A DNA stretch of 64,000 bases, taken from Acidimicrobiaceae bacterium (lineage in GTDB: Bacteria; Actinomycetota; Acidimicrobiia; Actinomarinales; Actinomarinaceae). Below are positions 14,543 through 32,658 of this stretch, one piece after another. The notes under the pieces were generated by a model. The model was not told where the DNA came from and did not search any database. It was given only the letters and a program-made list of their open reading frames with translations. The first letter of the stretch is position 1. The number at the start of each line of letters is the position of its first letter. The stretch lies in the NCBI GenBank assembly GCA_028344675.1, contig JAOMBT010000002.1:830-64829 (forward strand), read 5' to 3'. The position numbers and the translations under genes are program-made.

Positions 14543-15512
14543 TAAAAGAAAAGTTTGGATAAATGGGCAACTTTTACCTGAGTCAGAGGCAAAAGTACCA
14601 ATTTATGATTCAGCACTAATGTTTGGTGATACAGTATTTGAGATGACAAGATCATTTAATAAAGAACACTTTCTATTAGATGAGCACATAGACAGGCTTA
14701 ATGCTTCTGCAGAGTTTGTAGAGATAAAAATGCCTTATACTAAAAATCAGATACTTGATGCAATTGAAGAAGTTACGGAATATCACAATAATATATTCAC
14801 TTCTGACGATGAACATAGGTTAATGATCAACCTTACAAGAGGTTTGTTGGGAATATATGAAAATAATGTAGATTTTCCCGTGAAAGGTCCTATTTTAACT
14901 ATTGCTAACTTCCCTCTAAAGTGGACTGTATCTGGAATGTCAGATTATTTTTTTAATGGTATTCATGCAGTTGTTTCTAATCAAAAAATGATTCCAGATT
15001 TTCTGCTTAATGCAGCAGTAAAAAACAGAAGCAGACTTCATTATATGATGGCAAATATTGATGTGTCTAAAATGAATTTAGAGAGAGCGTGGGCATTATT
15101 AGAAGATTTAGAAGGGAATATCTGCGAAGGGACTGGTTCAAATATTTTTTTTGTTAAGAATGACGAAATTTTTACTCCAAAACCAAAAAATATGTTGAGA
15201 GGGATATCTAGGCAGTATGTTATTGACTTGGCCAGAAAAAATAATATCAACGTATACGAGGAAGACATAAAAGAAGAAGATTTTTCAAGTTTTTCTGAAG
15301 CTTTCTTTACTGCTACACCCTTCTGTATGGTTCCATGTTTTAAACTAAATGACCACATTTTAGACTTTCGACCTGAAGGTGGAATATACAATAAGGTGCT
15401 TTCTTTATGGTCTAATGAGGTTAGTGTAGATATTGAAAAACAAATAGTAAATTGGAATAAAGAAAAAGATTATTCTGGAAATAACTCAACCCCCTATAAG
15501 TTTAAAAACTAA
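14523..15512 (+). CDS. Aminotransferase class IV (BCAT / D-amino-acid aminotransferase fold)
   Basis: WINGQLLPESEAKVPIYDSALMFGDTVFEMTRSFNKEHFLLDEHIDRLNASAEF is a fold-type IV PLP enzyme N-terminus. Overlaps neuA by 20 nt. Confidence 0.65.
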   Translation: MMGFMDSKRKVWINGQLLPESEAKVPIYDSALMFGDTVFEMTRSFNKEHFLLDEHIDRLNASAEFVEIKMPYTKNQILDAIEEVTEYHNNIFTSDDEHRLMINLTRGLLGIYENNVDFPVKGPILTIANFPLKWTVSGMSDYFFNGIHAVVSNQKMIPDFLLNAAVKNRSRLHYMMANIDVSKMNLERAWALLEDLEGNICEGTGSNIFFVKNDEIFTPKPKNMLRGISRQYVIDLARKNNINVYEEDIKEEDFSSFSEAFFTATPFCMVPCFKLNDHILDFRPEGGIYNKVLSLWSNEVSVDIEKQIVNWNKEKDYSGNNSTPYKFKN

Positions 15513-16711
15513 CTTTTTACATTTTTAAATCTTAAACTACAAACAAAAATGATTACTAGAAAAGGTTCAATTAAAACTCTAGTTCTTGAATTCCCAAATG
15601 GTAATATTGATGAGACCACTATATATCCAACCGTTATTAGCAAAAGGCTCAATAAAAAATCACTTTTATTTTTACTAAGAACCATCCTCAATAATGAAAA
15701 ATTGATTAATGATACATAAATTAGTGAAAATAATCTAATAGATAAATATACGTAATTGTTATCACTAATACTTTCCCAATTTGATCCCCTAATTCCGAAC
15801 ATATTCCATACAGTACTTCTTGATATTGAAAGTAACTTACAGTGAACATTTTTAAAAAATCCAATTTTGGAGTCTAGTTTTAATTTATTTATCAAAATTT
15901 TAGAATCACTTTGCTTAGATAAGTTATTTTCTAATAGCCAGTTTTCAAAAACATACCCCGGTTCTGAAACTTCTAACTCATTAAAATCATAATTTTTGCA
16001 AATATTATTACTTGCTGTATTGAACCATTGCATGTGGAATGAACTGCTAGTTGAGTAAAAACTAGTTTCATACTGTATATAATTATTCACATAAACAGAA
16101 CCAATTAAAATTACAGGAAATAAAGCAATTTTAAAATAGTTAGTCAGTTTTTTATTTCTTCTAAGAATTAAAAGTATTAAATAAAAAAACACCACATAAA
16201 GGCCTAAGGGTTTAATTATTCCAAGCAAACCTACCGAAAGACCACTAAATGTATATTTTTTTTCATCAAAAAAATAAAAAGATGTAAACAATAATGTTGT
16301 CGATATACTTTCTGTCATGATTTGTGTAGAGCTAATTAGAGAATTTGGATTAATTAAAAATATTATGCAACCAATGCAGGCAATAGTTGAATCATAATAT
16401 TTGAATAAAATTTTATAAATTAAGTATAGAGTCAGTAAGTCTGCAATAAAATTTACAAAAATTAATAGGTTAACATCAAAGATTTTATGAAATATATTTA
16501 TAAGTAGTGGGTAACCAGGCATTCTAAATGTACTTAGCCAATAATCGTTAAGATTATCATTTAAAAAGTAATATGAAATATTACTGGAAAGCTCTAAATA
16601 GTGATCTGAGTCTTTAGTAAGATATATTTTTTCTAATTTAGAAGCATAGATTAGAAATAAAAATCTAGAAAAAATCAGAAATGATATAGAAGTTTTTGTA
16701 ATTTTTTCCAT
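15509..16711 (-). CDS. Polytopic membrane protein; candidate O-antigen polymerase or GT-C-like glycosyltransferase
   Basis: 400 aa, ~10 helices. First-loop motif DSDHYLELSSNI resembles the ArnT/PMT DExxY..I pattern. Confidence 0.35.
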   Translation of the reverse strand: MEKITKTSISFLIFSRFLFLIYASKLEKIYLTKDSDHYLELSSNISYYFLNDNLNDYWLSTFRMPGYPLLINIFHKIFDVNLLIFVNFIADLLTLYLIYKILFKYYDSTIACIGCIIFLINPNSLISSTQIMTESISTTLLFTSFYFFDEKKYTFSGLSVGLLGIIKPLGLYVVFFYLILLILRRNKKLTNYFKIALFPVILIGSVYVNNYIQYETSFYSTSSSFHMQWFNTASNNICKNYDFNELEVSEPGYVFENWLLENNLSKQSDSKILINKLKLDSKIGFFKNVHCKLLSISRSTVWNMFGIRGSNWESISDNNYVYLSIRLFSLIYVSLINFSLLRMVLSKNKSDFLLSLLLITVGYIVVSSILPFGNSRTRVLIEPFLVIIFVCSLRFKNVKS

Positions 16712-18478: not shown

Positions 18479-18515
18479 ATCAGTGAATATTGTAGTAAGT
18501 ATATTTCTATACTGA

Positions 18516-19470
18516 ATTAGGGGGTATTATTTCTTATTTAAGTAGAGCTATTATTTTTGAAAAAGAATTATTAAATAGTTTTGGAGTAAACAATATTAAT
18601 TTAATTGATGTTGGTTCTTCATTTAACCTTTTTGAGCCATTTAACCATATTGAATATAGTTGGAGGAAAGATTTAAAAATCTTATGTTTTGAACCAAATG
18701 AAGAAACTGACATAGTATCTTCAAAAGCAACAAGAATAAATATTAACAATGCCTTATGGAGCAATGAGCAAAAAATTAATTTCCATATTGCTAAAGAAAA
18801 AAGTAAGTCATCTGTTCACCCTCCTAATATTGAACTAATCAAAAAATTTAGTGATGAAAATTGGATTGAACGTGTGACAGATAAAACTGTTGAAATTGAT
18901 GCCGTGACTTTAGATAGTGTTATAAATCAATATAAATTTGAAGCGGATTTTATCAAAATTGACACACAGGGCTCGGAGTATGAGATCTTAGAAGGAGCCA
19001 AGAAATCAATATCCAAAGGTATTTTTGGAGCTTTACTTGAAACATGGTCATATCCATTTCACCAGGATCAAAAACTTATTTATGATGTTATGAAAATTAT
19101 GGATGATAATGGATATTTTCTTGTTGATTTGAATAAAGGTGGTTACTATCGTCGAAAAACAGTTCAAAATTCTACTTTATTTCTTGGTCAGATAGGTCAA
19201 CTTGACCTACTCTACTTTGAAACTTTTGAAAAATTTACGTCTACTGATAAATCGAATGAAAAGATAGTTAAGGCTGCATGTCTAGCTGACTTATATGGAA
19301 TGACTGATTATTCAGTTGAGTTACTAAATCATTACGGTAATTTTACTGAGCTAATTGAACAAATTTTAAAAAAAAGAAAAACACTCATAAAAAATGTTGA
19401 AAATCAATGGAGAGTTGAAAAGATAAAAAATCTTTTAAAATTTCAACCAAGAACTCCACCACTTCATTGA
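18516..19470 (+). pseudogene. FkbM-family methyltransferase, apparently frameshifted near 18597-18606 and lacking a canonical start
   Basis: Frame 0 reads ...FEKELLNSFGVNNINFN* and frame +1 continues (T)ILILIDVGSSFNLFEP...NALWSNEQKINFHIA...DFIKIDTQGSEYEILEGAKKSI. Together they give a typical FkbM N-terminus (LL..G...I.DVG) and the IKIDVEG motif. There is no ATG/GTG/TTG between the upstream stop (18513) and the motif. The listed ORF 18874..19470 is only the 3' part. Confidence 0.45.
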
Positions 19471-19698
19471 TTTTACAATTTTTGGTTCATTTCAATTTCA
19501 AATTAGCATCTATTTGTGGCATTCGTTGCAAGTTCAACATATGTAGTTGTGTTCGATAGAGACTCTTCACCTAACTCTATATAGTAAGGATCAACTGTTT
19601 CCAATCCTTGAACTTACATTTTTATTTGAAAAAAACACCTTCAGAATTGGCTAAGGAATCTAAATTTCCAGCTATTCTGTAATTTTTTGGTATTTAAT

Positions 19699-20160
19699 TT
19701 ATTTCTGTACACAAATATACACCCATGGCTTCAGACTGTCGTCATTGTTTCTTGCTTTGCCATTTATTTTATAAGTTGTTGCACCTAAGCTTTTAAATAA
19801 GTTTTCTAATCCAATAGCACTAATAGCAATTGGGTCAGTTTCAGATACTGATTTAAAATTTTTAGGATCATGTGACGCTGAATGATTTAAAATCAAAATG
19901 CCATCGGTTTTTAAATGTGATAACCAATTTTTAAACATACTATTAGGATTGAATGAATGGTCCCAAGAATTACTATATATAAAATCAAACGTATTTTTCC
20001 ACTCCAATTTATCACAATTCATATCGAAATTAATAGTGTTAGGATATTTTTCAAGATTTGGACCGATGTCAGTTCCAAATACATATGAATCATGGTTTAA
20101 AAATTTATTAAACCACTCTTGTTCTTTTCCTGTTCTAGTACCGTGACAAACACCACTCAA
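19699..20160 (-). CDS. Class I SAM-dependent methyltransferase, probably 5'-truncated (TTG start directly after an in-frame stop)
   Basis: FDFIYSNSWDHSFNPNSMFKNWLSHLKTDGILILN matches the post-motif-I/II region of Methyltransf_11/23 enzymes. The reading frame begins (K)LSGVCHGTRTG immediately after a TGA, with no room for the usual N-terminal ~30 aa. Confidence 0.45.
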   Translation of the reverse strand: MSGVCHGTRTGKEQEWFNKFLNHDSYVFGTDIGPNLEKYPNTINFDMNCDKLEWKNTFDFIYSNSWDHSFNPNSMFKNWLSHLKTDGILILNHSASHDPKNFKSVSETDPIAISAIGLENLFKSLGATTYKINGKARNNDDSLKPWVYICVQK

Positions 20161-20430
20161 TTTTCAATGAAAGCTATGTTTCCATAAATTTTTTAAATAA
20201 TTTTTATGATATCGATTTTATTACATGGGATAATATTCCCAATATGGAGGCAGAGCAAATACCAAACTTTTATAAAGATTATGACTTCGTTATATTTGAA
20301 TCTTCTATTGATTCTTTTTTTGAAAGTAGAATATTAAAATTTTCAAACTAAAAATTTTGAACAAAAGTGCAGTTATGTGGGCAGTTTTGATTAGTTTATT
20401 TGTGAAGACCAATATAGCCTATGTTTATTG

Positions 20431-20503
20431 TGGCCAGAGGCAGAATCGAACTGCCGACCCCTTGTTTTTCAGACAAGTGCTCTACCGACTGAGCTATCTG
20501 GCC
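20431..20503 (-). tRNA. tRNA-Phe (anticodon GAA)
   Basis: The reverse complement folds as GGCCAGA-TA-GCTC-AGTCGGTA-GAGC-A-CTTGT-CTGAAAA-ACAAG-GGGTC-GGCAG-TTCGATT-CTGCC-TCTGGCC-A. Full cloverleaf. Loop CT-GAA-AA. No encoded CCA (followed by CAA). Confidence 0.9.
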
Positions 20504-20579
20504 AGTTAGATTATTATATTACAAACAAAATAAAGAAGTAATAGAAAATTTTTCTTATTTTGTGAGGTAATCTATTTTT

Positions 20580-21356
20580 GTGAATAAAAAAATTACCATA
20601 ATTTTAAATTCTCTAAAATTTCAATCATTCAGTTTTTTAAAATATGTTTTTTTTAAGAAAAAAAGAAAACGTATTAAAAGACATGCCACAGATTATTTTT
20701 ATAATTTACCATGTATAGATTTTGATAATTGGGCTAAAGAAATAGATATAAATTTATTTAATGAGATGCAAAAATTCCAAGTACATTTTCAAGAGTATGA
20801 AACAAATTTTAATTTTACCTATTTAGGAGGAGCTCGTGGACTTAATCAGTACGGCGCACTTTATTTCTTAACAAGGTTGATAAAACCCCAAAACACTTTA
20901 GAAACGGGAGTTGCAAATGGCTTCTCATCCTATAGTTTTCTGAGTGCTATTGAAAAAAATAATTTTGGAAGATTAATTAGTAATGATTTGCCGCCATTGG
21001 ACATAGAAAAGAAAAATTGGAAATATATTGGCCAGATGGTTCCCAAAAAATTTCACAATATTTGGACATTGCATCTAGGCAGTGATCGAAAAAATTTGAA
21101 TTCAATTTGTAAAGAAAACACATTTGACTTGGCACATTTTGATAGCGATAAACTATCTTCGGGAAAAATGTACTGTATCAATACGCTATTGAAGTACAAC
21201 AAAACGTCACCTATTATTCTAATTGACAATTGTGCAGATGACTTTTTTTGGAAAAACTTAATAATAAAATCATATAAAAAAGTTGTTTTTGATCAAAACA
21301 CTAAAAGATTTGGAATCTTAATTCATAAAGATGACATTACAAATTTTCAACTGTAG
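20580..21356 (+). CDS. Class I SAM-dependent methyltransferase-like protein (Methyltransf_24 / CmcI-like)
   Basis: LGGARGLNQYGALYFLTRLIKPQNTLETGVANGFSSYSFLSAI resembles the E(I/T)G(T/V)xxGxS motif-I region of O-methyltransferase family 3. GTG start. Sits alone between tRNA-Phe and tRNA-Asp. Confidence 0.4.
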   Translation: MNKKITIILNSLKFQSFSFLKYVFFKKKRKRIKRHATDYFYNLPCIDFDNWAKEIDINLFNEMQKFQVHFQEYETNFNFTYLGGARGLNQYGALYFLTRLIKPQNTLETGVANGFSSYSFLSAIEKNNFGRLISNDLPPLDIEKKNWKYIGQMVPKKFHNIWTLHLGSDRKNLNSICKENTFDLAHFDSDKLSSGKMYCINTLLKYNKTSPIILIDNCADDFFWKNLIIKSYKKVVFDQNTKRFGILIHKDDITNFQL

Positions 21357-21360
21357 ATAG

Positions 21361-21435
21361 CGGGGACGACGGGATTCGAACCCGCGACCTCCTGCGTGAC
21401 AGGCAGGCGTGAACTCCAGACTTCACCACGCCCCC
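21361..21435 (-). tRNA. tRNA-Asp (anticodon GTC)
   Basis: The reverse complement is GGGGGCG-TG-GTGAA-GTCTGGAG-TTCAC-G-CCTGC-CTGTCAC-GCAGG-AGGTC-GCGGG-TTCGAAT-CCCGT-CGTCCCC-G. The anticodon arm is identical to the canonical bacterial tRNA-Asp. No CCA encoded. Confidence 0.85.
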
Positions 21436-21636
21436 GAAAAATTTATTCCACTTAATACTAATAGTTATTAACTATATTTAATTTATTAAAAAAATAATTT
21501 TACAAAACTGATTTTTTAATTGTTATGTACATAAGTAATCTATTTACAATTAATAGATATGGATACACAATAAAGAGGGTTATTAATACTTTCAAACTAA
21601 ATCTTTATATAGAAAAATTTATAAGATTAATATTTC

Positions 21637-22530
21637 TCAACTAGTATCTTTATTATTATTTATAAGATTTCCTAATATTCCAACAAAGATTGTCTGAATA
21701 CCAAACAGAAATAAAAGGCTAATTAGATTATCATTTTGAATAAATTTTTCATTTATGCCAGCATTAAAAAGATAAATTTGATATGAACTTATAAGAATTG
21801 AGATAAACATAAGTAAACTGCCTAATTTACCAAATGTAGAAAGTGGTTTTAATGAGGAGTAAATTATGAAAATTTGCCAAAACACTTTAAATGGATACTT
21901 TAAACTAACAAAACTGCTTCCATGAATTCTTTTGTTAAAAGTAATGGGTACCTGTTTAAATTTGTAACCTAATATAGAAGCCTCAATTAACACTTGTTGT
22001 GTGTAGTTATAATTACCTAGCATTCTAATTTTTCTTGCAAGATCTATTTTCATAGCAATGAATCCAGGTTGTGAATCTGTAATTTTATAACCCGTTAACC
22101 ATTTTGTAAGTGAACTAAAAAATTTGTTACCCACTTTTCTAATAAATTCCATTTTGTATTTTATTTCTCCATTAAATCTATCGCCATAAACTAAATCTAC
22201 TTCTTCATTTATTTCATTTAGAAGTAGGTCAATTTCTTCAAGATTATGTTGGAGGTCTGCGTCAACTTTAACAACATAATCTACCTCCAGTTTTCTTGCC
22301 TCATCGATACCGCTTTTTACCGCACTGGCTAGTCCCAAGTTTTTTTTATGACTTATTAAGAGATGATTAAGATTTGCTGTTTTAAGAATTTCGAGAGAAT
22401 TATCTTGTGATCCATCATTAACAAATATAAATATAAATTCGGGCCGTACAATTTTTTCAATATTTTTAAACAAAATTGGTAAACTTTTCGCTTCATTAAA
22501 CATAGGTATAATAATTGCAGTTTTTTTCAT
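21637..22530 (-). CDS. GT2 polyprenyl-phosphate glycosyltransferase (GtrB/ArnC/DPM1-like)
   Basis: AIIIPMFNEAKSLP...FIFVNDGSQDNSLEIL...VDADLQHN (DxD/DADLQH motifs), plus two C-terminal TM helices. This architecture matches undecaprenyl-phosphate sugar synthases. Confidence 0.8.
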   Translation of the reverse strand: MKKTAIIIPMFNEAKSLPILFKNIEKIVRPEFIFIFVNDGSQDNSLEILKTANLNHLLISHKKNLGLASAVKSGIDEARKLEVDYVVKVDADLQHNLEEIDLLLNEINEEVDLVYGDRFNGEIKYKMEFIRKVGNKFFSSLTKWLTGYKITDSQPGFIAMKIDLARKIRMLGNYNYTQQVLIEASILGYKFKQVPITFNKRIHGSSFVSLKYPFKVFWQIFIIYSSLKPLSTFGKLGSLLMFISILISSYQIYLFNAGINEKFIQNDNLISLLFLFGIQTIFVGILGNLINNNKDTS

Positions 22531-23903
22531 ACTTCCTCTTTATCAATATTAGCTAGAAAAAGTACTGCTGGAATTAATAAATGTGTTGCATATCTTGGTA
22601 TAAAGTGAGTAAAAAAAGCAAAAAATCCCCAAAGAGTGATTAAAAACAAAGAAGACAACGAGACTTTTTTATTTAGTAAATTACTTAAAGATTTTAGTAA
22701 TGCATATGGAATAAAAAACAGTCTTAAAAATGATAATACTTCTTTTACAAATAAAGAAATATTTTCAGGTAATGAGTAAAACTCGGTAAATTCAAAATTT
22801 ATAGAAGGAAATATCCCCCTATACCCAAACACCGTGCTCAACAACAAATGTTGAGAAAAGTTTTCTTTAATCAAATCAGTCGAAACAGTATTTAGAATCT
22901 TTTGCTGTTCAGTATATGTTTTAGACTCAAAACTTACTATTTCTAATCTACTTCCTACAGCACCAGTCAAATTTTTGGCCATTTTATACGAAGAGTTTGA
23001 GTTTGACCTGTCGTAAAGTATATCAGATCCAGAATCTATAACATAGCTCCAGAGGCTACCTTGTATTGAACCAAAAATAAATGGTTTAGCCGGTGTATAG
23101 AATATATAGCCAGCGAGTATTTGTTCAAAACTATTTGTACTGTATTCCGCTCTAATTGATAAAACTTCTGCTGCACGTCCAGTAATTGAAAATTCATTAA
23201 TAGTTAAATAATTTCTAGTCATCCACATTAATGATGGAAGTAGCAAAACAAGCATGACAGCAAACCATTTTTTTAAAGATTCTTTTTTATGAAAAAAATA
23301 TATCGTAAACACAAACGGTAGTAAATATAAAAATACAGCGTTGCTCAATGGCAAAATACTAAAAATAAATAAACTCCAATTTTTTTGTTTGTAATAGTTA
23401 TGAATACTTGTAGTTAATAAGAAAACAGTAATCAAGTCTTTGTATTCAATGGGAAGCATTAATAATAATGTGATTGATAATAAAATACTAAAAAATGTGG
23501 AAAAACGGCGATTTAAATTTTTAAAGATCAAAATAACAATAGAAATTTTTAATAAATAAGCCAGAAATACCAAAAGTTCTACTTCTTCATCGAAAGCGTC
23601 ACAACGAACGGATAAACAATTTTCTATAGGAATATTATTTGAAAAGTTTTGAACTCTCATTATTGAGGCAATTATAAAAGGATAAACCGGCTCACCCCTT
23701 CTGTAGCCAAGTTCTAATTTTGAATTTTCATCGATGTTGCTATTGATAACTTCTCTTTTGTATTCTCCTGAATTAAAAATTCCATAACCAATTTCCCAGT
23801 ATTGGATTTCATCACCTTCATTAGGAATTGACGCTAAGTCACTTTGGTAATTTGGAATTAGAAACAGTATTGAAACAAAAATTATAAATACTAGTTGCTT
23901 CAA
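22527..23903 (-). CDS. Polytopic membrane protein, candidate GT-C-fold glycosyltransferase (ArnT / Gtr type-specific transferase-like)
   Basis: 458 aa with >10 helices. First periplasmic-loop motif GDEIQYWEIGYGIF ([DE][DE]xxYxxI, cf. ArnT/PMT DExRYAEIA). Translationally coupled (4 nt overlaps) between the gtrA-like and gtrB-like genes. Confidence 0.45.
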   Translation of the reverse strand: MKQLVFIIFVSILFLIPNYQSDLASIPNEGDEIQYWEIGYGIFNSGEYKREVINSNIDENSKLELGYRRGEPVYPFIIASIMRVQNFSNNIPIENCLSVRCDAFDEEVELLVFLAYLLKISIVILIFKNLNRRFSTFFSILLSITLLLMLPIEYKDLITVFLLTTSIHNYYKQKNWSLFIFSILPLSNAVFLYLLPFVFTIYFFHKKESLKKWFAVMLVLLLPSLMWMTRNYLTINEFSITGRAAEVLSIRAEYSTNSFEQILAGYIFYTPAKPFIFGSIQGSLWSYVIDSGSDILYDRSNSNSSYKMAKNLTGAVGSRLEIVSFESKTYTEQQKILNTVSTDLIKENFSQHLLLSTVFGYRGIFPSINFEFTEFYSLPENISLFVKEVLSFLRLFFIPYALLKSLSNLLNKKVSLSSLFLITLWGFFAFFTHFIPRYATHLLIPAVLFLANIDKEEV

Positions 23904-24259
23904 TTCATTTCCTTTGAAAATAAAATAATTCTAATTAGGTGGACAATAATACTAATAAAAATTGTTGAAAGTACCACATACGGAAAGTACTGGCTAATTA
24001 AAGAAAAAATAAAATAATCAATTAAAAACAAAATAATATTTAGTCTTAAAAATAAAAAAAATGATGAGCTATTAATACTTCTTTTAAGCGTAAACTTACA
24101 ATGCAAAAAGTAACTCTGAAAATAAATATATATTAAAATCAATCCATAAAATAATTTGTTACTTTGATTAAAAAAATCAAAAATTAAAAAAACTAATACA
24201 TTCTTTATTAAATAGTTGAATCCAGATACTGTCGTAATTTTGATTGATCTATTAATCAT
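23900..24259 (-). CDS. GtrA-like small membrane protein (polyprenyl-P-sugar flippase family)
   Basis: 119 aa, 4 helices. SIKITTVSGFNYLIKNVLVFLIF fits the GtrA pattern (F.KF..VG.......F). First gene of a three-gene module downstream of tRNA-Lys. Confidence 0.45.
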   Translation of the reverse strand: MINRSIKITTVSGFNYLIKNVLVFLIFDFFNQSNKLFYGLILIYIYFQSYFLHCKFTLKRSINSSSFFLFLRLNIILFLIDYFIFSLISQYFPYVVLSTIFISIIVHLIRIILFSKEMN

Positions 24260-24268
24260 AATTCTTTG

Positions 24269-24341
24269 TGGGTCGGGTGGGAATCGAACCCACGACCTTG
24301 AGCTTAAAAGGCTCCTGCTCTACCGATTGAGCTACCGACCC
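24269..24341 (-). tRNA. tRNA-Lys (anticodon TTT)
   Basis: The reverse complement is GGGTCGGTAGCTCAATCGGTAGAGCAGGAGCCTTTTAAGCTCAAGGTCGTGGGTTCGATTCCCACCCGACCCA, near-identical in layout to E. coli tRNA-Lys(UUU). Loop CT-TTT-AA. No CCA. Confidence 0.85.
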
Positions 24342-24392
24342 AATATATTACAAATTGATGGTACACGAAAAATAAAAATAAATTAAATAAAC

Positions 24393-24701
24393 TTACTCTT
24401 CCTCTTTATTTAAAAGATCTCCAACTTTATTTTTTCCATCTTCAATGAGTTCATTTAACTCATTACTTATTTTTTTTATAATTTCTTTAGTTTCTGATCT
24501 AATCTCTTCATCTTTAACAGTCTCATCTACAGCTGTTATTAGATTTTTAAGTATCTCTTTACTGTTTTCTAAAGTTAACTGAAAAGAGTCTTTAAGATCG
24601 TCAATTGAATTTTCACTTACTACCTTATCTTTTATTTTCTTTTTAATTTCTGATACATCATTAGATATCTCATCCCATGAATTATTTTGTTGGTTATCCA
24701 T
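24393..24701 (-). CDS. Small acidic coiled-coil protein, unknown function
   Basis: 102 aa, rich in E/K/D, predicted helical. No recognisable motif. Confidence 0.3.
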   Translation of the reverse strand: MDNQQNNSWDEISNDVSEIKKKIKDKVVSENSIDDLKDSFQLTLENSKEILKNLITAVDETVKDEEIRSETKEIIKKISNELNELIEDGKNKVGDLLNKEEE

Positions 24702-24722
24702 TATTTAATAATATCTATATGG

Positions 24723-25565
24723 TTAAAATTTTGCTTTATCTTTAAAAAGAAGATTTGGATTCTTATTTATCCTCTGTTTTGCCCATCTAGCTGGTGCGAT
24801 TAATCTAAAAAAAGGTGGCAAAAACGGTCTTGTATATTTTAAAAATGCAAGATTAAAACCAAGAATGAATGATTTTAATTTACTGTCTTTAACACTATAA
24901 AGTTCTTTAAATTCACTTGGGAGTGTATTGAAGGCTGTAAAAGCAATAAAAGGCCATATTGGTTTAATATGAGTTGGCACTGGACCTCCTGCAATAATTT
25001 CCTGAACATCTTTTGCTACATCGGTATAAATCAAATAGTTCCTAGTTTTAGACTTTTCAATAACCCAATTTTTTAAACCTTCATGAGTTTGTGGCATTTC
25101 TTTAATATTCACTAAAACTAAATCTGCAGAAAGCATATTTTCTTTGTGGTACTGATTTTTCTCTTCTTCAGTAAGCTTTTTTACTGTTTTTTCATAAAAA
25201 TAAATTGAAGAAATCTGTAAACAAGCATGAACCCAAAGTAACTGTTCATGATCTAAGGCATCATATATATCGCCAGTAATTTCATCAGTACCTTTAATGA
25301 CTTCATGTAATTTATTTATTCTATGAGCACTCTCATCCGCTTCTTTTTTGGTGCCAAAAGTAACAGAGTTTTGTAATGATAGGGTTCTAATTAATCTTTT
25401 CCATGGATCTCTTTGGTAAAAAGATGTTTGCCTAGCACCAGCCGCAATTAGTGGATGAGCAGCGTGCATTAAAAGTGCTCGCGCACCTCCAAAAAGTACT
25501 GTAATTTCTTTATTAACCTTCCACATCATTGAGTTTGGGCCAAAATATCCTGGATCACCATTCAT
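24723..25565 (-). CDS. DUF2236 / MpaB-family putative oxygenase
   Basis: FGGARALLMHAAHPLIAAGARQTSFY is the hallmark of the ER-bound oxygenase MpaB/DUF2236 family. Confidence 0.45.
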   Translation of the reverse strand: MNGDPGYFGPNSMMWKVNKEITVLFGGARALLMHAAHPLIAAGARQTSFYQRDPWKRLIRTLSLQNSVTFGTKKEADESAHRINKLHEVIKGTDEITGDIYDALDHEQLLWVHACLQISSIYFYEKTVKKLTEEEKNQYHKENMLSADLVLVNIKEMPQTHEGLKNWVIEKSKTRNYLIYTDVAKDVQEIIAGGPVPTHIKPIWPFIAFTAFNTLPSEFKELYSVKDSKLKSFILGFNLAFLKYTRPFLPPFFRLIAPARWAKQRINKNPNLLFKDKAKF

Positions 25566-25613
25566 ATCTTTAAATTTTAGGCTACTTTATAGTTAATATT
25601 GAATTAGAAAACC

Positions 25614-26741
25614 ATGGAATTAAATTATATAACTTATCAAGGTATTCCTAGTAATACTGCTCATGGAATACATACCTTTTCTTTAATTAAATACTTTGTA
25701 AAGAATGGATTAGATATAAAACTTGTATTTCCATTACGAGATAAGGGTGCAACTACTGAATTAACCAAGTTACAAAATCATTATGAAATCAATGAAAATT
25801 TTAAGATTGAAGCAACAAAACATTATCTTCCGTTTGGTCGAACAAAATTTCTTAAGAAATATACATATTTATTCAGTCATATTTTATGGTCTTTTTATAT
25901 TTCAAAAAAATACAAAAAAAACAGTAAAGATTTAGTTTTTACTTTGTCAGATTGGGTTTTCTATTTCTTGTCAAAAAAAAATATTAATGTAACTTACGAA
26001 TGTCACGACTTAACCGTTATTAGAAAAAAATTAATTAAGAAAGCCTTACTTTTCCCCAATTCAAAAATAATTTGCATTAATAAATTTGTCAAAGAGGACC
26101 TAGGTCTTGAAGAAAGTAAAAATGTTGTTGTATTGGAAAATGGATTTGATCATGAAGTATTTTCTCAAAAAATAAAAAAAGAATCTCCAATTAGGGTTTT
26201 GTTTGCAGGAAACTTAGAAAGATTCGGTAAAACAAGGGGTATTGAGCAAATTATCAAATATTTTTTAAAAACTAATTTTTCAAAAAAAGTCCAGCTTCAT
26301 ATCTTTGGAGGTCCTACATCACTAGTAGAAAATTTAAGACATAAATACAATCATGAGAGTTTATTTATTCATGGACATATAAAGAGATCAGAACTATCCA
26401 AAGAAATGGCAATATCTCATATTGGAGTGCTCACTAATATTGAAAGTACCCATTCACAAAGACATACTTCTCCACTTAAATTTTATGAGTACATTGGCTC
26501 GGGATTAAAGGTACTAGCTACAGATGCTTTAACACATAAATCTCTTCCGTATCAAGATTCAGTTTATTTCTTTGATTTAAATAATTTTGAAAGTTTTAAA
26601 AATTCAATTAGTTTAGCGATTGATAATATAACAAAAAACGAATCTTTAAATTATGAGAAGTCAACAATTGACTTTAGAGTTAAAGCGATTATAAAGTTTA
26701 TCTCTGCGCGCCCGGAAGGACTCGAACCCTCAACCCCCTGA
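25614..26741 (+). CDS. GT4 glycosyltransferase (WbuB-like); 3' end reads 35 nt into tRNA-Arg
   Basis: SPLKFYEYIGSGLKVLATDA matches the WbuB-type GT4 motif (PxKLFEYMAaGkPVI). The last 12 codons (ISARPEGLEPSTP) are antisense to the tRNA-Arg 3' half, so the native C-terminus may have been replaced. Confidence 0.55.
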   Translation: MELNYITYQGIPSNTAHGIHTFSLIKYFVKNGLDIKLVFPLRDKGATTELTKLQNHYEINENFKIEATKHYLPFGRTKFLKKYTYLFSHILWSFYISKKYKKNSKDLVFTLSDWVFYFLSKKNINVTYECHDLTVIRKKLIKKALLFPNSKIICINKFVKEDLGLEESKNVVVLENGFDHEVFSQKIKKESPIRVLFAGNLERFGKTRGIEQIIKYFLKTNFSKKVQLHIFGGPTSLVENLRHKYNHESLFIHGHIKRSELSKEMAISHIGVLTNIESTHSQRHTSPLKFYEYIGSGLKVLATDALTHKSLPYQDSVYFFDLNNFESFKNSISLAIDNITKNESLNYEKSTIDFRVKAIIKFISARPEGLEPSTP

Positions 26742-26780
26742 TCCGAAGTCAGGTGCTCTATCCAATTGAGCTACGGACGC
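26707..26780 (-). tRNA. tRNA-Arg (anticodon TCG)
   Basis: The reverse complement is GCGTCCG-TA-GCTC-AATTGGATA-GAGC-A-CCTGA-CTTCGGA-TCAGG-GGGTT-GAGGG-TTCGAGT-CCTTC-CGGGCGC-G. The acceptor has one G-T pair. Loop CT-TCG-GA. No CCA. Confidence 0.8.
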
Positions 26781-27912
26781 AAAAATCTAATAATTTTTTG
26801 TTTCTATATTCCCAAGAGTAGTTGGGTATATTCCTCTTAGAGTTTTCTATAAGTTGTTCTCTAATCTTTTTATTCTCTAGAAGATATTTTATTTTTAATT
26901 TAAAGTCTTCGTAGTCATCATGTTTGAAATACTCAATACCTAAACCAGAATCTTTTAGTTCTAGATTGCTTTTTATGTCTGAAGCAATAACTACAGTACC
27001 ACTTGCTGCGTATTCAAAAATTTTTAGTGGAGAAGCATAGTTTGACATGTGATAGTCATCTGGGTATGGAACTATTCCAATATCAAGGCTTTTCATATAA
27101 TCAGGAACTTCATATTTTGGTATTTTGTACAAATGGTCAAATTCGGTTTCATTATCTTGAAAATCTTCAATAATTTCATCAATTTTTTTACTAGGACCAC
27201 CAATTAAAGTTAATTTAAAATCAAAATCTGTGGAAAGTTTTTTCAATTCGTTAAATGCTTTTCTTACTCCTTTGTCCTTACCATATGTTTCTAGCATTCC
27301 AATGTATCCAATGTTTAATTTATTTGTTTTTTTTCTTGAACTTTCTTCTTTGTAGTCATTGATACTCACACCATTAGTTAAATATATTGTTTTCTCAGGT
27401 GAAAGCTTGTAAAGCTCTTTGAATGAAGTTTGTGAAGTACCAACAAAAATTACATTCTTATACTTAGAGAGTTTATTAATAACATATTTTTGAATATATT
27501 TTCCTGCTCCATGCTTTTCGTATATAAGCGTAGCTTTTGAAGACACCTGCCTAAGTAATATATTTGGGTTAGTTGACCATAGGTAATCTTCCATGCTTAT
27601 GTAGGAATTTAAATTTTTAGACCATAAATTGGCACCCAGATTCCAAATAATTTTTGTTATAAAACTCGGAAGAATTTTATAAAATCTATATTTAGTAAAA
27701 TCATAGTTTTCGACTTCTATGAAGTTTATTCTTGAATTTTTGTAATACTGTGCAGGAGATATTTCTATTGTCTTATCGTTGTTTGTTTTTGAGTAGTAAA
27801 CAGTTACAGTAGTTTTATTGTCTATAAACCCGTTAGCAATATCAATAATATGCGAACCGTATGCTTTTTCAGTTGGAAACCTTCCGTAAACTAACAGACC
27901 TATTTTTTTCAT
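26758..27912 (-). CDS. GT4 glycosyltransferase (WbuB-like)
   Basis: ASPLKIFEYAASGTVVIASD (WbuB-type motif) and GMLETYGKDKG (GT-B C-terminal domain start). Paralogous motif to 25614..26741. Confidence 0.65.
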   Translation of the reverse strand: MKKIGLLVYGRFPTEKAYGSHIIDIANGFIDNKTTVTVYYSKTNNDKTIEISPAQYYKNSRINFIEVENYDFTKYRFYKILPSFITKIIWNLGANLWSKNLNSYISMEDYLWSTNPNILLRQVSSKATLIYEKHGAGKYIQKYVINKLSKYKNVIFVGTSQTSFKELYKLSPEKTIYLTNGVSINDYKEESSRKKTNKLNIGYIGMLETYGKDKGVRKAFNELKKLSTDFDFKLTLIGGPSKKIDEIIEDFQDNETEFDHLYKIPKYEVPDYMKSLDIGIVPYPDDYHMSNYASPLKIFEYAASGTVVIASDIKSNLELKDSGLGIEYFKHDDYEDFKLKIKYLLENKKIREQLIENSKRNIPNYSWEYRNKKLLDFCVRSSIG

Positions 27913-27980
27913 TACATGATTAATACTAATTAATTCAATTAATTTAATAAGTTATTTATTTCCTAATTACAATATATATA

Positions 27981-29015
27981 GTGAAAGCGTTAATTACAGG
28001 AATAACAGGTCAAGATGGAGCCTACTTGGCCGAACTTTTACTTGAAAAAGATTACGAAGTTCACGGCACTGTAAGACGCTCATCATCCATAAATACAGAG
28101 AGAATAGATGGTTTAATTTCTAAATATTCTAATGATCATCAACTGAATCTTCACTATTCAGATCTTCTAGATTCCTCTTCAATAACCAACCTACTTAATA
28201 ATATTGTTCCAGATGAGGTATACAATTTAGCTGCCCAATCGCATGTTTCGGTGTCATTTTCGAACCCAATATTCACAACCCAAATCGGTACTCTTGGATC
28301 TATTTCAATACTTGAGGGTATTAGGCACCTTGATAAAGATGTAAAATTTTATCAAGCTTCCTCATCTGAAATGTTCGGAGGGACTAGTAAAGAAAGCTTA
28401 AATGAAAAATCTTTGTTTGATGCTAAAAGCCCCTACGGAGCTTCAAAAGTTTTTGCTCATGAAATTACAAAAATATACAGGGAATCTTATGACTTGTTCG
28501 GAGTAAATGGAATTCTATTTAATCATGAATCACCACTAAGGGGTGAAACCTTTGTCACTAGAAAAATTAGTAAAGCTGTAGGGAGAATATCTGTAGGAGT
28601 TCAAGAAAGATTGACTTTAGGAAATCTTGATGCAAGTAGAGACTGGGGATATGCCAAAGATTATGTTGAAGGTATGTGGAGAATGATGCAACATACAACT
28701 GCAGAAGACTGGGTTCTAGCCACAGGGATAACAAAAACAGTTAAAGAATTTGCTGAAGCAGCTTTTAATTTTGTTGGTTTAAATTGGGAGGATTATGTAG
28801 ATGTTTCTGAAAAATACTTTAGACCAAACGAGGTTGAGTATTTGATGGGTGATGCAACAAAAGCCAAGAAAATACTTGGGTGGAAACCTACAGTTGATTT
28901 TAAAGAACTCGTAAAGGTTATGGTTGAACATGATATTATAGAAGCCAAAAAAGATTTAGCTTTATTAAAGGACAATTTAATATTTCCAACCTGGGAACAT
29001 CCAAAAGAACTGTAA
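27981..29015 (+). CDS. gmd: GDP-mannose 4,6-dehydratase
   Basis: [45 protein letters not shown] is near-identical in pattern to E. coli Gmd ([41 protein letters not shown]). Catalytic SSSEMFG...YGASK. Confidence 0.9.
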   Translation: [344 protein letters not shown]

Positions 29016-29018
29016 CTC

Positions 29019-29942
29019 ATGAAAGTATTATTAGTTGGTTCCGAAGGCTTTCTTGGAGGATGGGTAAAAAAATTATTACTCAAAGATAATGAACATGAAT
29101 TAGTTGAAATCCGTGGAAAAAACGACTTAGATATAACAAATATAGAGAAACTTGATAAATTTTTCATAAATCACAAACCACAAGCAGTTATAAACTGTGC
29201 TGCTTTTGTTGGAGGTATCTCCTATGGCTACAAATTTCCGGCAAAAATGCTGTATGAAAATTCAAAAATGGCTTTAAATCTTTATCAAATTTCTAATTCG
29301 AACAAAGTTTCAGTACTAGTAAACCCAATTTCAAACTGCGCCTACCCAGGACATTTAAATACATATAAAGAAGATAATTTCTTTGACGGGCCTCCACATG
29401 AATCAGTTTATAACTACGCAATGTCAAAAAGAATGTGTGTAGATTTAGGTAACAGTTTTTTCAACGAATATAACTTTACTTCTGCAAATGTCATATTGTC
29501 GAACATGTATGGTCCCGAAGATCATTTTGATATTGAGCGATCTCATGCATTAGGTGCCCTAGTTAAAAAAATATCTGATGCAAAAATGAATAATGAAAGC
29601 AGTGTAGAAATTTGGGGTACAGGAAATCCAATAAGAGAATGGTTATATGTTCATGATGGTGCAAGAGCTTTGCTGAAATCTTTAAACCTAAAGAGCGGCC
29701 ACTATTTTTTTAACATTGGAGTAAAAAAAGGAATATCAATTATTGATTTAGCAAATATTATTAAAGAAAAGGTTGGGTGGAAAGGAAAATTTTCATTCAA
29801 TTTGGATAAACCTGATGGAGTTCTCGAAAAAAAAGTTGATGGTATAAAGGGTTCTCAACTTTTAGAATGGGAACCAGAGTTTGAATTAGAATACGGAATA
29901 GAAAAAACTATAAATTGGTATAAAGAAACACATGGAAGATAA
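29019..29942 (+). CDS. fcl: GDP-L-fucose synthase (GDP-4-keto-6-deoxymannose 3,5-epimerase/4-reductase)
   Basis: NCAAFVGGISYGYKFPAKMLYEN...SNMYGPEDHF...IWGTGNPIREWLYVHDGA parallels E. coli Fcl AAKVGGIVANNTYPADFIYQN...NLYGPHDNF...VWGSGTPMREFLHVDD. Immediately downstream of gmd. Confidence 0.75.
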   Translation: MKVLLVGSEGFLGGWVKKLLLKDNEHELVEIRGKNDLDITNIEKLDKFFINHKPQAVINCAAFVGGISYGYKFPAKMLYENSKMALNLYQISNSNKVSVLVNPISNCAYPGHLNTYKEDNFFDGPPHESVYNYAMSKRMCVDLGNSFFNEYNFTSANVILSNMYGPEDHFDIERSHALGALVKKISDAKMNNESSVEIWGTGNPIREWLYVHDGARALLKSLNLKSGHYFFNIGVKKGISIIDLANIIKEKVGWKGKFSFNLDKPDGVLEKKVDGIKGSQLLEWEPEFELEYGIEKTINWYKETHGR

Positions 29943-30357
29943 AAATATAAAACATATCACCCTAAATGGTGAAATATATGCTTCAATTTTTGACATAAGA
30001 AATATTCCAGAAGGTCTCGATTTTTTAACTAATGACAAATCTTTCATTCAAGTAGGCACTTGGAATTACAAAAAAGATAAGATTTTAGATGCGCATTTTC
30101 ATAATTACTTTGAAAGAAGCTCATACAGAACACAAGAAGTTGTATATGTCTTACAAGGAAAGATTAAATGTAATCTATACGAAGAGGATACGTCTTATAT
30201 TGATTCTGCAATTGTAGAAGCAGGAATGATGATTGTTCAATATCAAGGGGTTCACGAATATGAAATGATAGAAGATTCAAAAGTTTTAGAAGTTAAAAAT
30301 GGACCTTATCATGGACCAGACAAAGATCGAACACGAGTAAATGTTAGAAAAAATTAA
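29932..30357 (+). CDS. Cupin-fold sugar 3,4-ketoisomerase (FdtA/WxcM-like)
   Basis: 141 aa. ...DAHFHNYFERSSYRTQEVVYVLQGKIKCNLYEED carries the HxH pair (cf. FdtA RGxHAH) and the beta-rich layout of WxcM-like isomerases. Overlaps fcl by 11 nt. Confidence 0.5.
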   Translation: MEDKNIKHITLNGEIYASIFDIRNIPEGLDFLTNDKSFIQVGTWNYKKDKILDAHFHNYFERSSYRTQEVVYVLQGKIKCNLYEEDTSYIDSAIVEAGMMIVQYQGVHEYEMIEDSKVLEVKNGPYHGPDKDRTRVNVRKN

Positions 30358-31429
30358 TCAAGTAGAACCAAATATTTCTGGAGACGACATTCAGAGAGTG
30401 AATGATTATATGTCTAGTGGTGCATGGATAACTGAGCATGCACTAACTAAAGAATTAGAAGAGAAGATAGCCGATTTTGTTGGTCGAAAATATGCAGTTG
30501 CAGTACCTAATGGCACCATTGCTATCTACTTGTCATTGCTTGCTGCGGGACTTACTGAAGGTAAGCGAGTTGCAGTTCCGAATATAACTATGATTGCAAC
30601 AATTAATGCAATACTTTGGGCAGGAGCTGAGCCAGTAATAATAGATCTTAATGAGCGCTTATGTATGTCTCTCAAGTCATTACAAACAGTGGACAAGCTT
30701 GATGGAGTTATATATGTACCATTAAATGGTAGAACAGAAGACGGTATAGCAATAGAAAACTATTGTAATGATAAAAATATTATCTTAATCGAAGATTCTG
30801 CTCACTCTCTTGGTTCACGGTATCAAGATAAGATGTGTGGTTCACTCGGAAGTATAAGTGTATTTTCATTTACACCTCATAAAATAATCACAATGGGCCA
30901 AGGGGGTCTAGTCTTAACTGATGATGATAGTCTTTATGAGTATCTTTTAGATTTAAAAACGTTTAATAGATCAAAAGATAGAAGTGACTGGCATGACGGA
31001 TTTGGACTTAATTTTAAAATAACCGATTTACAATCTGCGCTGGGTCTTTCACAATTTGAAAAAATTAATGAATTTGTAAAAGTAAAAAGAGAAATGTTTC
31101 AAATTTATAAAAGTAGTATTGAAAATTATAATTTTATTAATTTTTTTGAATACGAAACTCCTTGGTTTGTAGATTTAATTTGCAAATCAGAAACAGAAAG
31201 AAATGATTTAAAACTTTCTCTTGAAGATAATAATATTTTAACCAGAGAATCCTATCCAGCTTTAAGTAAGCAAAGTTTTTTACAGAGTGTTGAGAAAACG
31301 AATCTAGAATTTTCTGAAAATGTTTCTGATAACATCCTCTGGTTACCGTCTTCTACTAATTTAACAAAAGATCAAATAAATGAAATCGTTGATCAAATTT
31401 CAACTTTATGGACAACAAAGTATTTATAA
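30341..31429 (+). CDS. DegT/DnrJ/EryC1/StrS-family PLP-dependent sugar aminotransferase
   Basis: VPNGTIAIYLSLLAAGLTEGKRVAVPNITMIATINAILWAGAEPVIID and SFTPHKIITMGQGGLVLTDD (the PLP-lysine region SFxxxKxxxxGEGG). Confidence 0.8.
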   Translation: MLEKINQVEPNISGDDIQRVNDYMSSGAWITEHALTKELEEKIADFVGRKYAVAVPNGTIAIYLSLLAAGLTEGKRVAVPNITMIATINAILWAGAEPVIIDLNERLCMSLKSLQTVDKLDGVIYVPLNGRTEDGIAIENYCNDKNIILIEDSAHSLGSRYQDKMCGSLGSISVFSFTPHKIITMGQGGLVLTDDDSLYEYLLDLKTFNRSKDRSDWHDGFGLNFKITDLQSALGLSQFEKINEFVKVKREMFQIYKSSIENYNFINFFEYETPWFVDLICKSETERNDLKLSLEDNNILTRESYPALSKQSFLQSVEKTNLEFSENVSDNILWLPSSTNLTKDQINEIVDQISTLWTTKYL

Positions 31430-31433
31430 AATA

Positions 31434-32114
31434 ATGAAAACACAAGACACTGAATTACATGATGTTTCCTTAATTATTGCAACATACAATGAAGAGGAAT
31501 CCCTTGGTTATGTTCTTGATGAAATAAAAGACTTTAACATAGGAGAAATTATTATTATCGACAAAAATTCAACAGATAATACTAAACATATTGCAGAAAA
31601 ATACGATGTAAAATTTATCACTCAGTCACAAGAAGGTTGGGGAGGTGCTGTTAAAGAAGCCATAGGCCTGTCTTCTAAAGAATATATAACATATATGGAT
31701 GGAGATGGTTCATACAATCCAAAAGCTTTACATGAAATGAAAAGTCTTATAAAAGACCAAGATGCGGTTTTTTGTTCAAGATATAAAGATGGTGCAAAGA
31801 GTCCTGATGATACATTTATTAGAGCAATTGGAAATAAACTTTTTACAAATTTTGTTAGATTTAGATTTGGTTGTGAAATTACAGATTCTCTTTTCTTTTA
31901 CCCGATGTTTAATAGAGATATTTTAAAAAAAGTTAATCTTCAATCTGACGACTTCACACTGTGTTTGGAACTTCCTGTAAAAGTTCATCAAAATAAATTG
32001 AAATATACTGAAATTCTCAGCGAAGAAAGAGAAAGATATGCTGGTAAAACAAAAGTCAATGCTTTAATTGACGGTTCTAAAATACTGAAAGGAATCTTTT
32101 CAATAACAAGATAG
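31434..32114 (+). CDS. GT2 glycosyltransferase (DPM1-like, soluble)
   Basis: VSLIIATYNEEESLGYVLDEIKDF...IIIIDKNSTDNT...YMDGDGSYNP (DxD and DGDGS motifs). The start is taken at the internal MKTQ (track ORF 31380..32114) to avoid overlapping the aminotransferase. Confidence 0.65.
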   Translation: MKTQDTELHDVSLIIATYNEEESLGYVLDEIKDFNIGEIIIIDKNSTDNTKHIAEKYDVKFITQSQEGWGGAVKEAIGLSSKEYITYMDGDGSYNPKALHEMKSLIKDQDAVFCSRYKDGAKSPDDTFIRAIGNKLFTNFVRFRFGCEITDSLFFYPMFNRDILKKVNLQSDDFTLCLELPVKVHQNKLKYTEILSEERERYAGKTKVNALIDGSKILKGIFSITR

Positions 32115-32115
32115 T

Positions 32116-32658
32116 ATGAAATTACATTTAGGTTGCGGTAAAAGGTATATAGAAGGCTTTACACATATTGATGTAGTCAAATACGATCATATAGATTTTG
32201 AAATACCGGTTGATAAGTTAGATATATTTTCCAACAACTCTATAGATGAAATTTACGCATCTCATGTTATTGAGTACTTTGATAGAGATAAAGTAAAGAA
32301 TGTACTGGAAGAATGGTATAGGGTACTAAAACCAGGAGGACTTTTAAGGCTTGCAGTTCCTAATTTTAATTCATTGATTAAAGTCTATGAAAAATCAAAT
32401 GATTTGAATAAAATACTTGGACCTCTATACGGTAAGTGGGATATTGGTGATGAGAGTATTTATCATAGAACTGTTTATGACAAACAAAGCTTAACGGATG
32501 TACTGCTAGAAGCTAAATTTTATAATGTTATAGAGTGGGACTGGTCAATAGTTTTCAAAGATTTAGTTAATTATGATGATCATTCTCAGGCATATTTTCC
32601 ACATATGGATAAATCAAATGGGATACATATTAGTTTGAATTTGGAATGTACTAAGTGA
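32116..32658 (+). CDS. Class I SAM-dependent methyltransferase (Methyltransf_11-like)
   Basis: MKLHLGCGKRYIEGFTHIDV...VIEYFDRDKVKNVLEEWYRVLKPGGLLRL matches motifs I and post-II/III of type 11 methyltransferases. Confidence 0.7.
   Translation: MKLHLGCGKRYIEGFTHIDVVKYDHIDFEIPVDKLDIFSNNSIDEIYASHVIEYFDRDKVKNVLEEWYRVLKPGGLLRLAVPNFNSLIKVYEKSNDLNKILGPLYGKWDIGDESIYHRTVYDKQSLTDVLLEAKFYNVIEWDWSIVFKDLVNYDDHSQAYFPHMDKSNGIHISLNLECTK

Follow-up and report, generated by a model that had tools for sequence, protein, structure and literature searches.

A tRNA-bounded three-gene cassette of the Candidatus Actinomarinales glycotype island, probably an operon for three-component extracytoplasmic glycosylation

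Extracytoplasmic glycosylation by three-component, or multi-component transmembrane, systems is known from Gram-positive bacteria, where it is represented by CsbB-GtcA-YfhO, GtlA-GtcA-GtlB and CsdAB with CflA (PMC8035078, PMC7389260). In these systems a membrane-anchored glycosyltransferase of the GT-A fold and family GT2 is predicted to make a polyprenyl-phosphate sugar, and it is accompanied by a small protein with about four membrane helices and by a polytopic GT-C glycosyltransferase whose first outer loop bears an acidic motif; the genes lie among those for wall polymers. Two other close counterparts are the gtrABC cassettes, phage-borne or chromosomal, that glucosylate O-antigen in Shigella and Salmonella, and the mycobacterial set of PpgS (Rv3631)/Rv3779 and GtrA-like Rv3789 with AftA (PMC5964476), in which a GT-C enzyme, paired with a polyprenyl-phosphate sugar synthase, decorates wall polysaccharide. 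A locus of comparable composition was analysed here in a stretch of 64,000 nucleotides (nt) from an Acidimicrobiaceae bacterium (contig JAOMBT010000002.1, positions 830 to 64,829), hereafter called the window. The locus consists of three minus-strand genes (window positions 21637-24259) between tRNA-Lys and tRNA-Asp, coding for proteins of 119, 458 and 297 amino acids (aa). The analysis indicated that these genes probably form one operon for extracytoplasmic glycosylation of the three-component type, located in a slot of the island fGI1 of Candidatus (Ca.) Actinomarinales.

The module resembles the Gram-positive systems in its membrane-anchored GT2, in its small protein of about four helices, in its polytopic GT-C enzyme with an acidic first outer loop and in its position among envelope polymer genes, and its host is probably monoderm. 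It differs from them in that the small protein fails the GtrA family, the GT-C clade has no Pfam model of its own, and translational coupling joins all three genes, that of the small protein coming first, then GT-C and then GT2. With the gtrABC cassettes it shares a GT2 that is a full-length homologue of GtrB and a transferase more variable than the synthase, which mirrors the type-specific gtrC; unlike them, it lacks phage context, has another gene order and carries a 119-aa protein that fails the phage GtrA profile. The host, as far as passages of PMC7771536 describe this group, would also be without lipopolysaccharide or O-antigen. A reading made earlier from the sequence alone (the sequence-only reading) had compared the module with cassettes that modify O-antigen, an acceptor that is not likely because the host is an actinobacterium. 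The mycobacterial system is also actinobacterial and combines the same two enzyme classes, and the GT2 of the module weakly matches the PpgS model; unlike mycobacteria, the Actinomarinales show no evidence of arabinogalactan or mycolate, and the small protein of the module is not a recognisable GtrA.

The arrangement of the three open reading frames (ORFs) between the two tRNA genes, as proposed by the sequence-only reading, was confirmed using ORF prediction, ARAGORN and Rfam. The upstream boundary of the slot is tRNA-Lys(UUU) at 24268-24341 (minus strand; Rfam tRNA score 75.2 bits) and the downstream boundary is tRNA-Asp(GUC) at 21360-21435 (minus strand; ARAGORN and Rfam). Between them, on the minus strand, follow the gene of the 119-aa four-helix membrane protein, a putative lipid-linked-sugar flippase or GT-C partner (23900-24259), the gene of the 458-aa polytopic protein with a predicted GT-C fold, which begins with TTG (22527-23903), and the gene of the 297-aa GtrB/ArnC-type GT2 (21637-22530). 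A spacer of 201 nt (21436-21636) separates the GT2 stop codon from tRNA-Asp. Both of the 4-nt overlaps that had been claimed could be read directly: the 119-aa and 458-aa genes share TTGA (...AAT TTGA AGC, TTG start and TGA stop), the 458-aa and 297-aa genes share ATGA (...GT ATGA AA, ATG and TGA), and a purine-rich stretch lies upstream of each. Every one of the three proteins has 18-25 homologue clusters in marine metagenomes, at 50-99% identity and with undisrupted frames, and the pairwise ratio of nonsynonymous to synonymous divergence (dN/dS) of 0.09-0.28 revealed purifying selection on all three genes. The three ORFs are therefore real genes, and a reading of them as chance ORFs was ruled out by the same conservation and dN/dS values.

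The 297-aa protein is, from its sequence matches, clearly predicted to be a GtrB/ArnC-type polyprenyl-phosphate sugar synthase with two C-terminal membrane helices. It matched the GT2 model PF00535 at 4.7e-20 over residues 6-167 and the phage family phrog_841 (PHROG 841, 'GtrB-like O-antigen conversion') at 4.9e-43 over residues 2-291, aligned to 2-289 of 309. The GtrB-like nature expected for it was thus borne out by the hidden Markov model (HMM) searches. The top match in the PDB was Synechocystis GtrB (5ekp; residues 5-290 against 29-311), followed by ArnC and then by an archaeal dolichol/polyprenol-phosphate-mannose synthase (DPMS; 5mlz). The motif DADLQH occupies residues 91-96, with D91-A-D93 aligned to the DAD of the Synechocystis protein sll0501, and the transmembrane helices of this GtrB are matched in the alignment by two hydrophobic segments near the C terminus (229-255 and 267-291), so that the features read earlier in the GT2 are all present. 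The NCBIfam models AglJ, ArnC, PgfS and PpgS were matched over the full length at 60-83 bits against equivalog cut-offs of 325-529 bits; for PpgS the values were 2e-16 and 60 against 370 bits. Orthology to ArnC, AglJ, PgfS or PpgS therefore failed the test, all scores being far under the cut-offs, and for the same reason no sugar specificity can be assigned to the protein.

The 458-aa protein gave no match in Pfam or NCBIfam, and its 20 close homologues gave none in Pfam. An AlphaFold2 (AF2) model built from the family alignment (predicted local distance difference test (pLDDT) 84.7, predicted template modelling score (pTM) 0.86) contains about 11-12 long helices. In a Foldseek search of the PDB with this model, ranks 1-4 were taken by ArnT, STT3, AglB and PglB and rank 7 by AftA, the absolute scores being weak. 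The family profile retrieved 440 relatives among 1.84 billion representatives, and among 61 distant relatives sampled from the profile matches at E<=1e-12, PMT_2 was matched by 19, PMT by 6, STT3 by one and GT87 by one. The same profile also matched the window's own PMT_2 protein at 15509-16711, at 3.8e-09; a profile of the wide GT-C alignment gave no meaningful match among PDB sequences. The motif GDEIQYWEIGY noted in the sequence-only reading lies at residues 30-40. Its D31, in the GDE that follows helix 1, shows no variation among 21 close sequences and reaches at least 90% conservation among the 61 distant ones, N231, R251 and R437 are invariant in the wide alignment, and the motifs RRGE, WMxRN and THFIPRY are also present. 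D31, N231, R251 and R437 fit the loop-1 catalytic acid and the phosphate-binding residues that are described, in general terms, for GT-C enzymes (PMC8035078). Based on the modelled fold and on the distant relatives we conclude that the protein is a putative GT-C transferase of a clade uncovered by Pfam and distantly linked to PMT_2, in agreement with the GT-C role first suggested for it.

The gene neighbourhood of distant homologues of this GT-C protein was also inspected. In two Algoriphagus genomes the gene order is GT2, true GtrA (scoring above the gathering threshold of PF04138), methyltransferase, GT-C protein. In a Thermoleophilia genome the homologue adjoins a GtrB-like GT2, and a GT2 likewise adjoins it on contigs carrying P0046, a third lineage. 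These neighbouring GT2s align over their full length with the 297-aa protein of the window. The functional coupling of the GT-C clade with a GtrB-like GT2 is conserved across phyla.

The larger setting of the module is the published cell-envelope "glycotype" island of a Ca. Actinomarina/OCS155 genome, fGI1 or hypervariable region (HVR). The identity of the window with this island follows from its five tRNA genes (Phe, Asp, Lys, Arg and Val) and its sugar genes, which are as described for fGI1 in passages of PMC7771536. There, Lopez-Perez et al. present fGI1 as the flexible 'glycotype' island of Ca. Actinomarinales, with the five internal tRNAs as hot spots for cassette insertion; in passages of a 2026 complete-genome preprint (bioRxiv 10.64898/2026.04.03.716425) the island is named a tRNA-bounded hypervariable region. 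The window agrees with these accounts in its tRNAs, in a GC content of about 28%, in its envelope sugar genes and in small cassettes swapped at tRNAs, and the module is like the fGI1 cassettes in lying between island tRNAs with a content that varies among strains. Envelope sugar genes occupy the window from position 1 to about 42.8 kb and include GT4 enzymes, NeuB, GDP-mannose dehydratase, aminotransferases, methyltransferases, sugar-nucleotide enzymes and two further PMT_2 GT-C proteins; beyond tRNA-Val lie core genes such as that of ribonucleotide reductase. In the GTDB species set a close relative of the module was found in one genome only, the single amplified genome (SAG) 'OCS155 cluster bacterium AG-426-D23' of Ca. 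Actinomarinales (locus L002 below), where the order tRNA-Arg, MpaB-like gene, 102-aa gene, tRNA-Lys, the three genes, tRNA-Asp and tRNA-Phe is the same.

The content of the slot between tRNA-Lys and tRNA-Asp was then compared among relatives. The MpaB-like gene of the flank, which is conserved (82-100% aa identity), was used to fetch 80 metagenome loci; their tRNAs and genes were mapped, and 49 of the loci were informative. This presence/absence survey, which had been proposed together with the sequence-only reading, revealed the three-gene module in 7 loci (one cut by a contig end), an empty slot in 6, where tRNA-Asp starts 46-48 nt past tRNA-Lys, and a Bac_transf phosphoglycosyl transferase alone in 15; the remaining informative loci carry other cassettes. 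Among the alternatives are a GT2 paired with a 337-aa membrane protein, a membrane protein of 566 aa that is accompanied in some loci by a hexapeptide acyltransferase, a Wzy_C-like protein, a set of 7 kb that includes epimerases, and a phosphonate pathway (L013 4941-11663 and L012 9390-13048). The last of these encodes a phosphoenolpyruvate (PEP) mutase-cytidylyltransferase fusion, a thiamine pyrophosphate (TPP)-dependent decarboxylase, an Fe-alcohol dehydrogenase, a 629-aa membrane protein and a glycerophosphotransferase-like protein, which suggests phosphonate decoration of the envelope. No homologue of the initiating phosphoglycosyl transferase of the Bac_transf family, the occupant of the slot in other lineages, was found in the window. 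The content differs even among close relatives: locus L011, 99.5% identical to the window in nucleotides, carries the module; L015, whose flanks are 92.8% identical, has an empty slot with tRNA-Asp 100% conserved; and L013 has an MpaB protein 99% identical in amino acids to that of the window, yet the phosphonate cassette is in its slot. Such presence and absence fits a role in surface diversification. In four loci (L036, L042, L048 and L073) there is no tRNA-Lys at this place, and the sugar-nucleotide genes corresponding to window positions 27981-32658 form an inverted block immediately downstream of the 102-aa gene, an island rearrangement.

A second polymorphic slot adjoins the first one at 20430-21435. 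It contains the gene of a 258-aa methyltransferase (20580-21356, plus strand; Methyltransf_24 at 1.6e-09) between tRNA-Asp and tRNA-Phe (20430-20503, minus strand), the latter being the far edge of this slot. In most relatives the two tRNAs are 2-6 nt apart with no gene between them, and the methyltransferase copy of L011 is only 58% identical in amino acids to that of the window. In L002, tRNA-Phe occurs twice, as a normal copy (12371-12444) and as an odd 80-nt copy (13030-13109), the two flanking a 127-aa ORF; this duplication, which lies outside the module, is reminiscent of the direct tRNA repeats that mark recent cassette insertions according to passages of PMC7771536.

The breakpoints of exchange were visible in the comparison of individual loci. 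Between L011 and the window the identity is 99.5% as far as 33 nt beyond the GT2 stop codon, within the 201-nt spacer that holds the recombination breakpoint, and drops to 74% across tRNA-Asp, the methyltransferase gene and tRNA-Phe. In L056 the synonymous divergence (dS) from the window is 3.4 for the flanking MpaB gene against 0.35 for the GT-C and 0.44 for the GT2 gene, whereas in L014 it is 0.42-0.54 for the MpaB, 102-aa and 119-aa genes against 1.7 for the GT-C and 2.0 for the GT2 gene. This mosaic of dS values indicates that transfer between lineages affects the module, or only its GT-C and GT2 genes, separately from the flanks. Among the module-bearing alleles the transferase is the most variable protein and the synthase the least (52-86% aa identity for the GT-C against 72-93% for the GT2). 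Recombination with breakpoints at the edges of the slot exchanges its content, and the simplest mechanism would be homologous recombination in which the conserved tRNAs and flanks serve as anchors. The near-identical contig L011 lacks an 84-nt stretch of this spacer (21520-21603). Part of that stretch, 35 nt long, shows 77% similarity to 20323-20357, just beyond tRNA-Phe, a likeness which may be chance in AT-rich DNA.

The expression of the operon was considered from its upstream junction. The ATG of the 119-aa gene is placed 8 nt past the 3' end of tRNA-Lys, and the spacing is similarly short in L002, L011 and L056, the module-bearing loci whose junctions were read. Scans for promoter and terminator consensus sequences gave nothing above shuffled controls, and the same was observed for folding of the 3' spacer from GT2 to tRNA-Asp. 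As the 8-nt gap leaves no room for a promoter, transcripts reading through from tRNA-Lys or from farther upstream probably cover the operon. The short gap would imply a tRNA-mRNA co-transcript and a very short leader once the tRNA has been processed.

In the mechanism proposed for the module, the GT2 would, by the homology of its enzyme class, load polyprenyl phosphate with a single sugar taken from a nucleotide sugar, on the inner side of the membrane. The lipid-linked sugar would then reach the outer face, a step for which the 119-aa protein is a candidate from its gene position and topology, unless it docks on the GT-C enzyme instead. Finally, the 458-aa protein, as its predicted fold and loop-1 D31 suggest, would attach the sugar to an envelope polymer or protein that has already been exported. 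The likely pay-off would be diversification of the glycotype, that is of the cell surface, under phage pressure.

Several observations weigh against this reading, beginning with the small protein. The 119-aa protein matched neither Pfam (PF04138) nor NCBIfam at E<=0.1, nor the PHROG GtrA family, and alignment of its family with the GtrA alignment by hhalign gave a probability of 0.6-0.7%. Only one of 18 family members came near PF04138, the best value being E=0.11. A control sequence of Shigella GtrA was detected by PF04138 at 2.6e-13 and by the phage GtrA family at 5.5e-70. The 25 homologue clusters of the protein all come from marine metagenomes and none is annotated by Pfam. Its AF2 model, with a pLDDT of only 62, shows four helices (2-29, 35-57, 64-89 and 95-117), and in a PDB fold search the best TM-scores were those of the GtrA-like membrane domain of Pyrococcus furiosus DPMS, nothing being significant. 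A weak likeness in register was seen between SYFLHCKFTLK and SFFANAKFTFK of Shigella GtrA (pairwise E=0.003). Size, helix number and neighbourhood are thus those expected of a GtrA protein and the profile match failed, so that the HMM check did not sustain the GtrA label of the sequence-only reading: the likeness of the protein to GtrA is confined to size, four-helix topology, gene position and a single short motif, and a GtrA assignment is unproven. Because the GtrA profiles fail and the model is of low confidence, there is no positive evidence for the flipping step. The remaining points against the reading concern the unity and mobility of the cassette. A two-gene variant occupies the same slot in L092-L094 (for example L092 1004-2754), with a 119-aa protein and a 464-aa GT-C protein, 49-61% identical in amino acids to those of the window, and without GT2; no GtrB-like gene was seen in the approximately 8 kb of L092 downstream of it. 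For this reason the three genes are not an obligatory unit, and the term 'self-contained' is questionable. The 297-aa GT2 may also feed lipid-linked sugar to several transferases, because the window has this single GtrB-type synthase with membrane helices and two additional PMT_2 GT-C genes (1485-2948, plus strand, and 15509-16711, minus strand). No integrase or recombinase was found in the slot or its neighbours, and a search for tRNA-fragment or att-like repeats within 18500-28000 gave only chance-level AT-rich repeats; in this the module is unlike the recent fGI1 insertions, for which passages of PMC7771536 report a partial-tRNA direct repeat. The description 'mobile' consequently holds for cassette exchange at tRNA hot spots and fails for an autonomous element.

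The first alternative, which is tentative although it deserves attention, regards the 119-aa protein as an obligate membrane partner of the GT-C enzyme, serving in anchoring, acceptor recognition or stabilisation, while flipping of the lipid-linked sugar would fall to another protein or to the synthase itself. It agrees with the failure of the GtrA profiles and with the 4-nt overlap of the 119-aa and GT-C genes, which is kept in L092-L094 where the GT2 is absent. The breakpoint of L014, which falls between the 119-aa gene and the GT-C/GT2 pair, likewise indicates that the 119-aa sequence is not tied to the synthase, and an anchor role has been described for the mycobacterial GtrA protein Rv3789, which recruits the GT-C enzyme AftA (PMC5964476, PMC7389260). 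Against it, the size, the four helices and the stretch S-[YF]-F-x-[HN]-x-K-F-T-[LF]-K resemble GtrA in register, distant GT-C homologues in Algoriphagus adjoin a true GtrA, and beside the GT-C relatives of the P0046 lineage and of Thermoleophilia no such small partner was called.

A rather unlikely extension of this idea combines two proposals. The 119-aa family would be an unrecognised small membrane partner, either unrelated to GtrA or beyond the reach of GtrA profiles, forming an obligate pair with the Pfam-unrecognised GT-C clade. The tRNA-Lys slot would in turn be an expression dock for promoter-less cassettes, joined 8-10 nt past the tRNA 3' end and expressed as tRNA-mRNA co-transcripts, from which 3' processing of the tRNA would leave a nearly leaderless mRNA; such a dock would be similar to an integron platform, with no integrase.

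Equally improbable is a role of the module in protein O-glycosylation, as a counterpart of the actinobacterial Ppm1/Pmt pair, in place of polysaccharide decoration. Distant relatives of the 458-aa protein match PMT_2 and PMT, the host is an actinobacterium and the GT2 also matches the mannose synthase 5mlz, as this explanation would expect. However, ArnT-like lipid and polysaccharide transferases also fall under PMT_2, the 458-aa protein itself has no PMT, MIR or PMT_4TMC match, the GT2 matches GtrB and ArnC better than DPMS, and the surrounding island encodes functions of the polysaccharide type such as GT4 enzymes, NeuB and sugar-nucleotide enzymes. An origin as a phage-derived lysogenic-conversion cassette, a gtrABC prophage relic at a tRNA attachment site, is hardly credible, since its adjacency to a tRNA, the strong match of the GT2 to phrog_841 and a prophage reported at tRNA-Val of another Actinomarinales genome in passages of PMC7771536 are set against the absence of integrase, att-like tRNA repeats and phage genes at the module (the slot and its neighbours are free of phage genes, as the sequence-only reading had stated), a GC content equal to that of the surrounding island, an order (A-like, C, B) that differs from gtrA-gtrB-gtrC and does not mirror the phage cassette, and the lack of relatives of the GT-C or 119-aa protein in IMG/VR (family scans), INPHARED (tblastn) and BFVD (fold search).

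Two other features of the island were observed. At tRNA-Arg (window 26706-26780) both flanking glycosyltransferase ORFs run into the tRNA gene: the ORF at 25614-26741 (plus strand) has a 36-nt antisense overlap and that at 26758-27912 (minus strand) a 23-nt overlap on the same strand, and the same overlaps occur in related loci. The genes at 36421-38097 (plus strand) and 38120-39445 (minus strand) are facing paralogues for polytopic membrane proteins, 44% identical to each other and without a Pfam match. Each shares about 31% identity with a protein of 547 aa from the Lys-Asp slot of L071, and they may represent another uncharacterised family of envelope enzymes.

The type of system, three-component glycosylation, and the cassette-exchange island (PMC7771536) are already known. 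A term search of PMC7771536 gave no mention of GtrA, and neither the three-gene cassette nor a census of the Lys-Asp slot is described in passages from PMC7771536 or bioRxiv 10.64898/2026.04.03.716425. What is new is the Pfam-unrecognised GT-C clade, the small-protein family that fails the GtrA profiles and the site-resolved census of alternative cassettes. The Ca. Actinomarinales count among the most abundant free-living bacteria of the sea and also among the smallest, and the cassette gives a testable handle on one modification of their envelope, for which it predicts lipid-carrier-dependent glycosylation at the outer face of the membrane. At the resolution of a single site, the census shows that close relatives differ in their surface genes, carrying nothing, the module, a phosphonate pathway or other cassettes, and this pattern fits phage-driven diversification of the glycotype.

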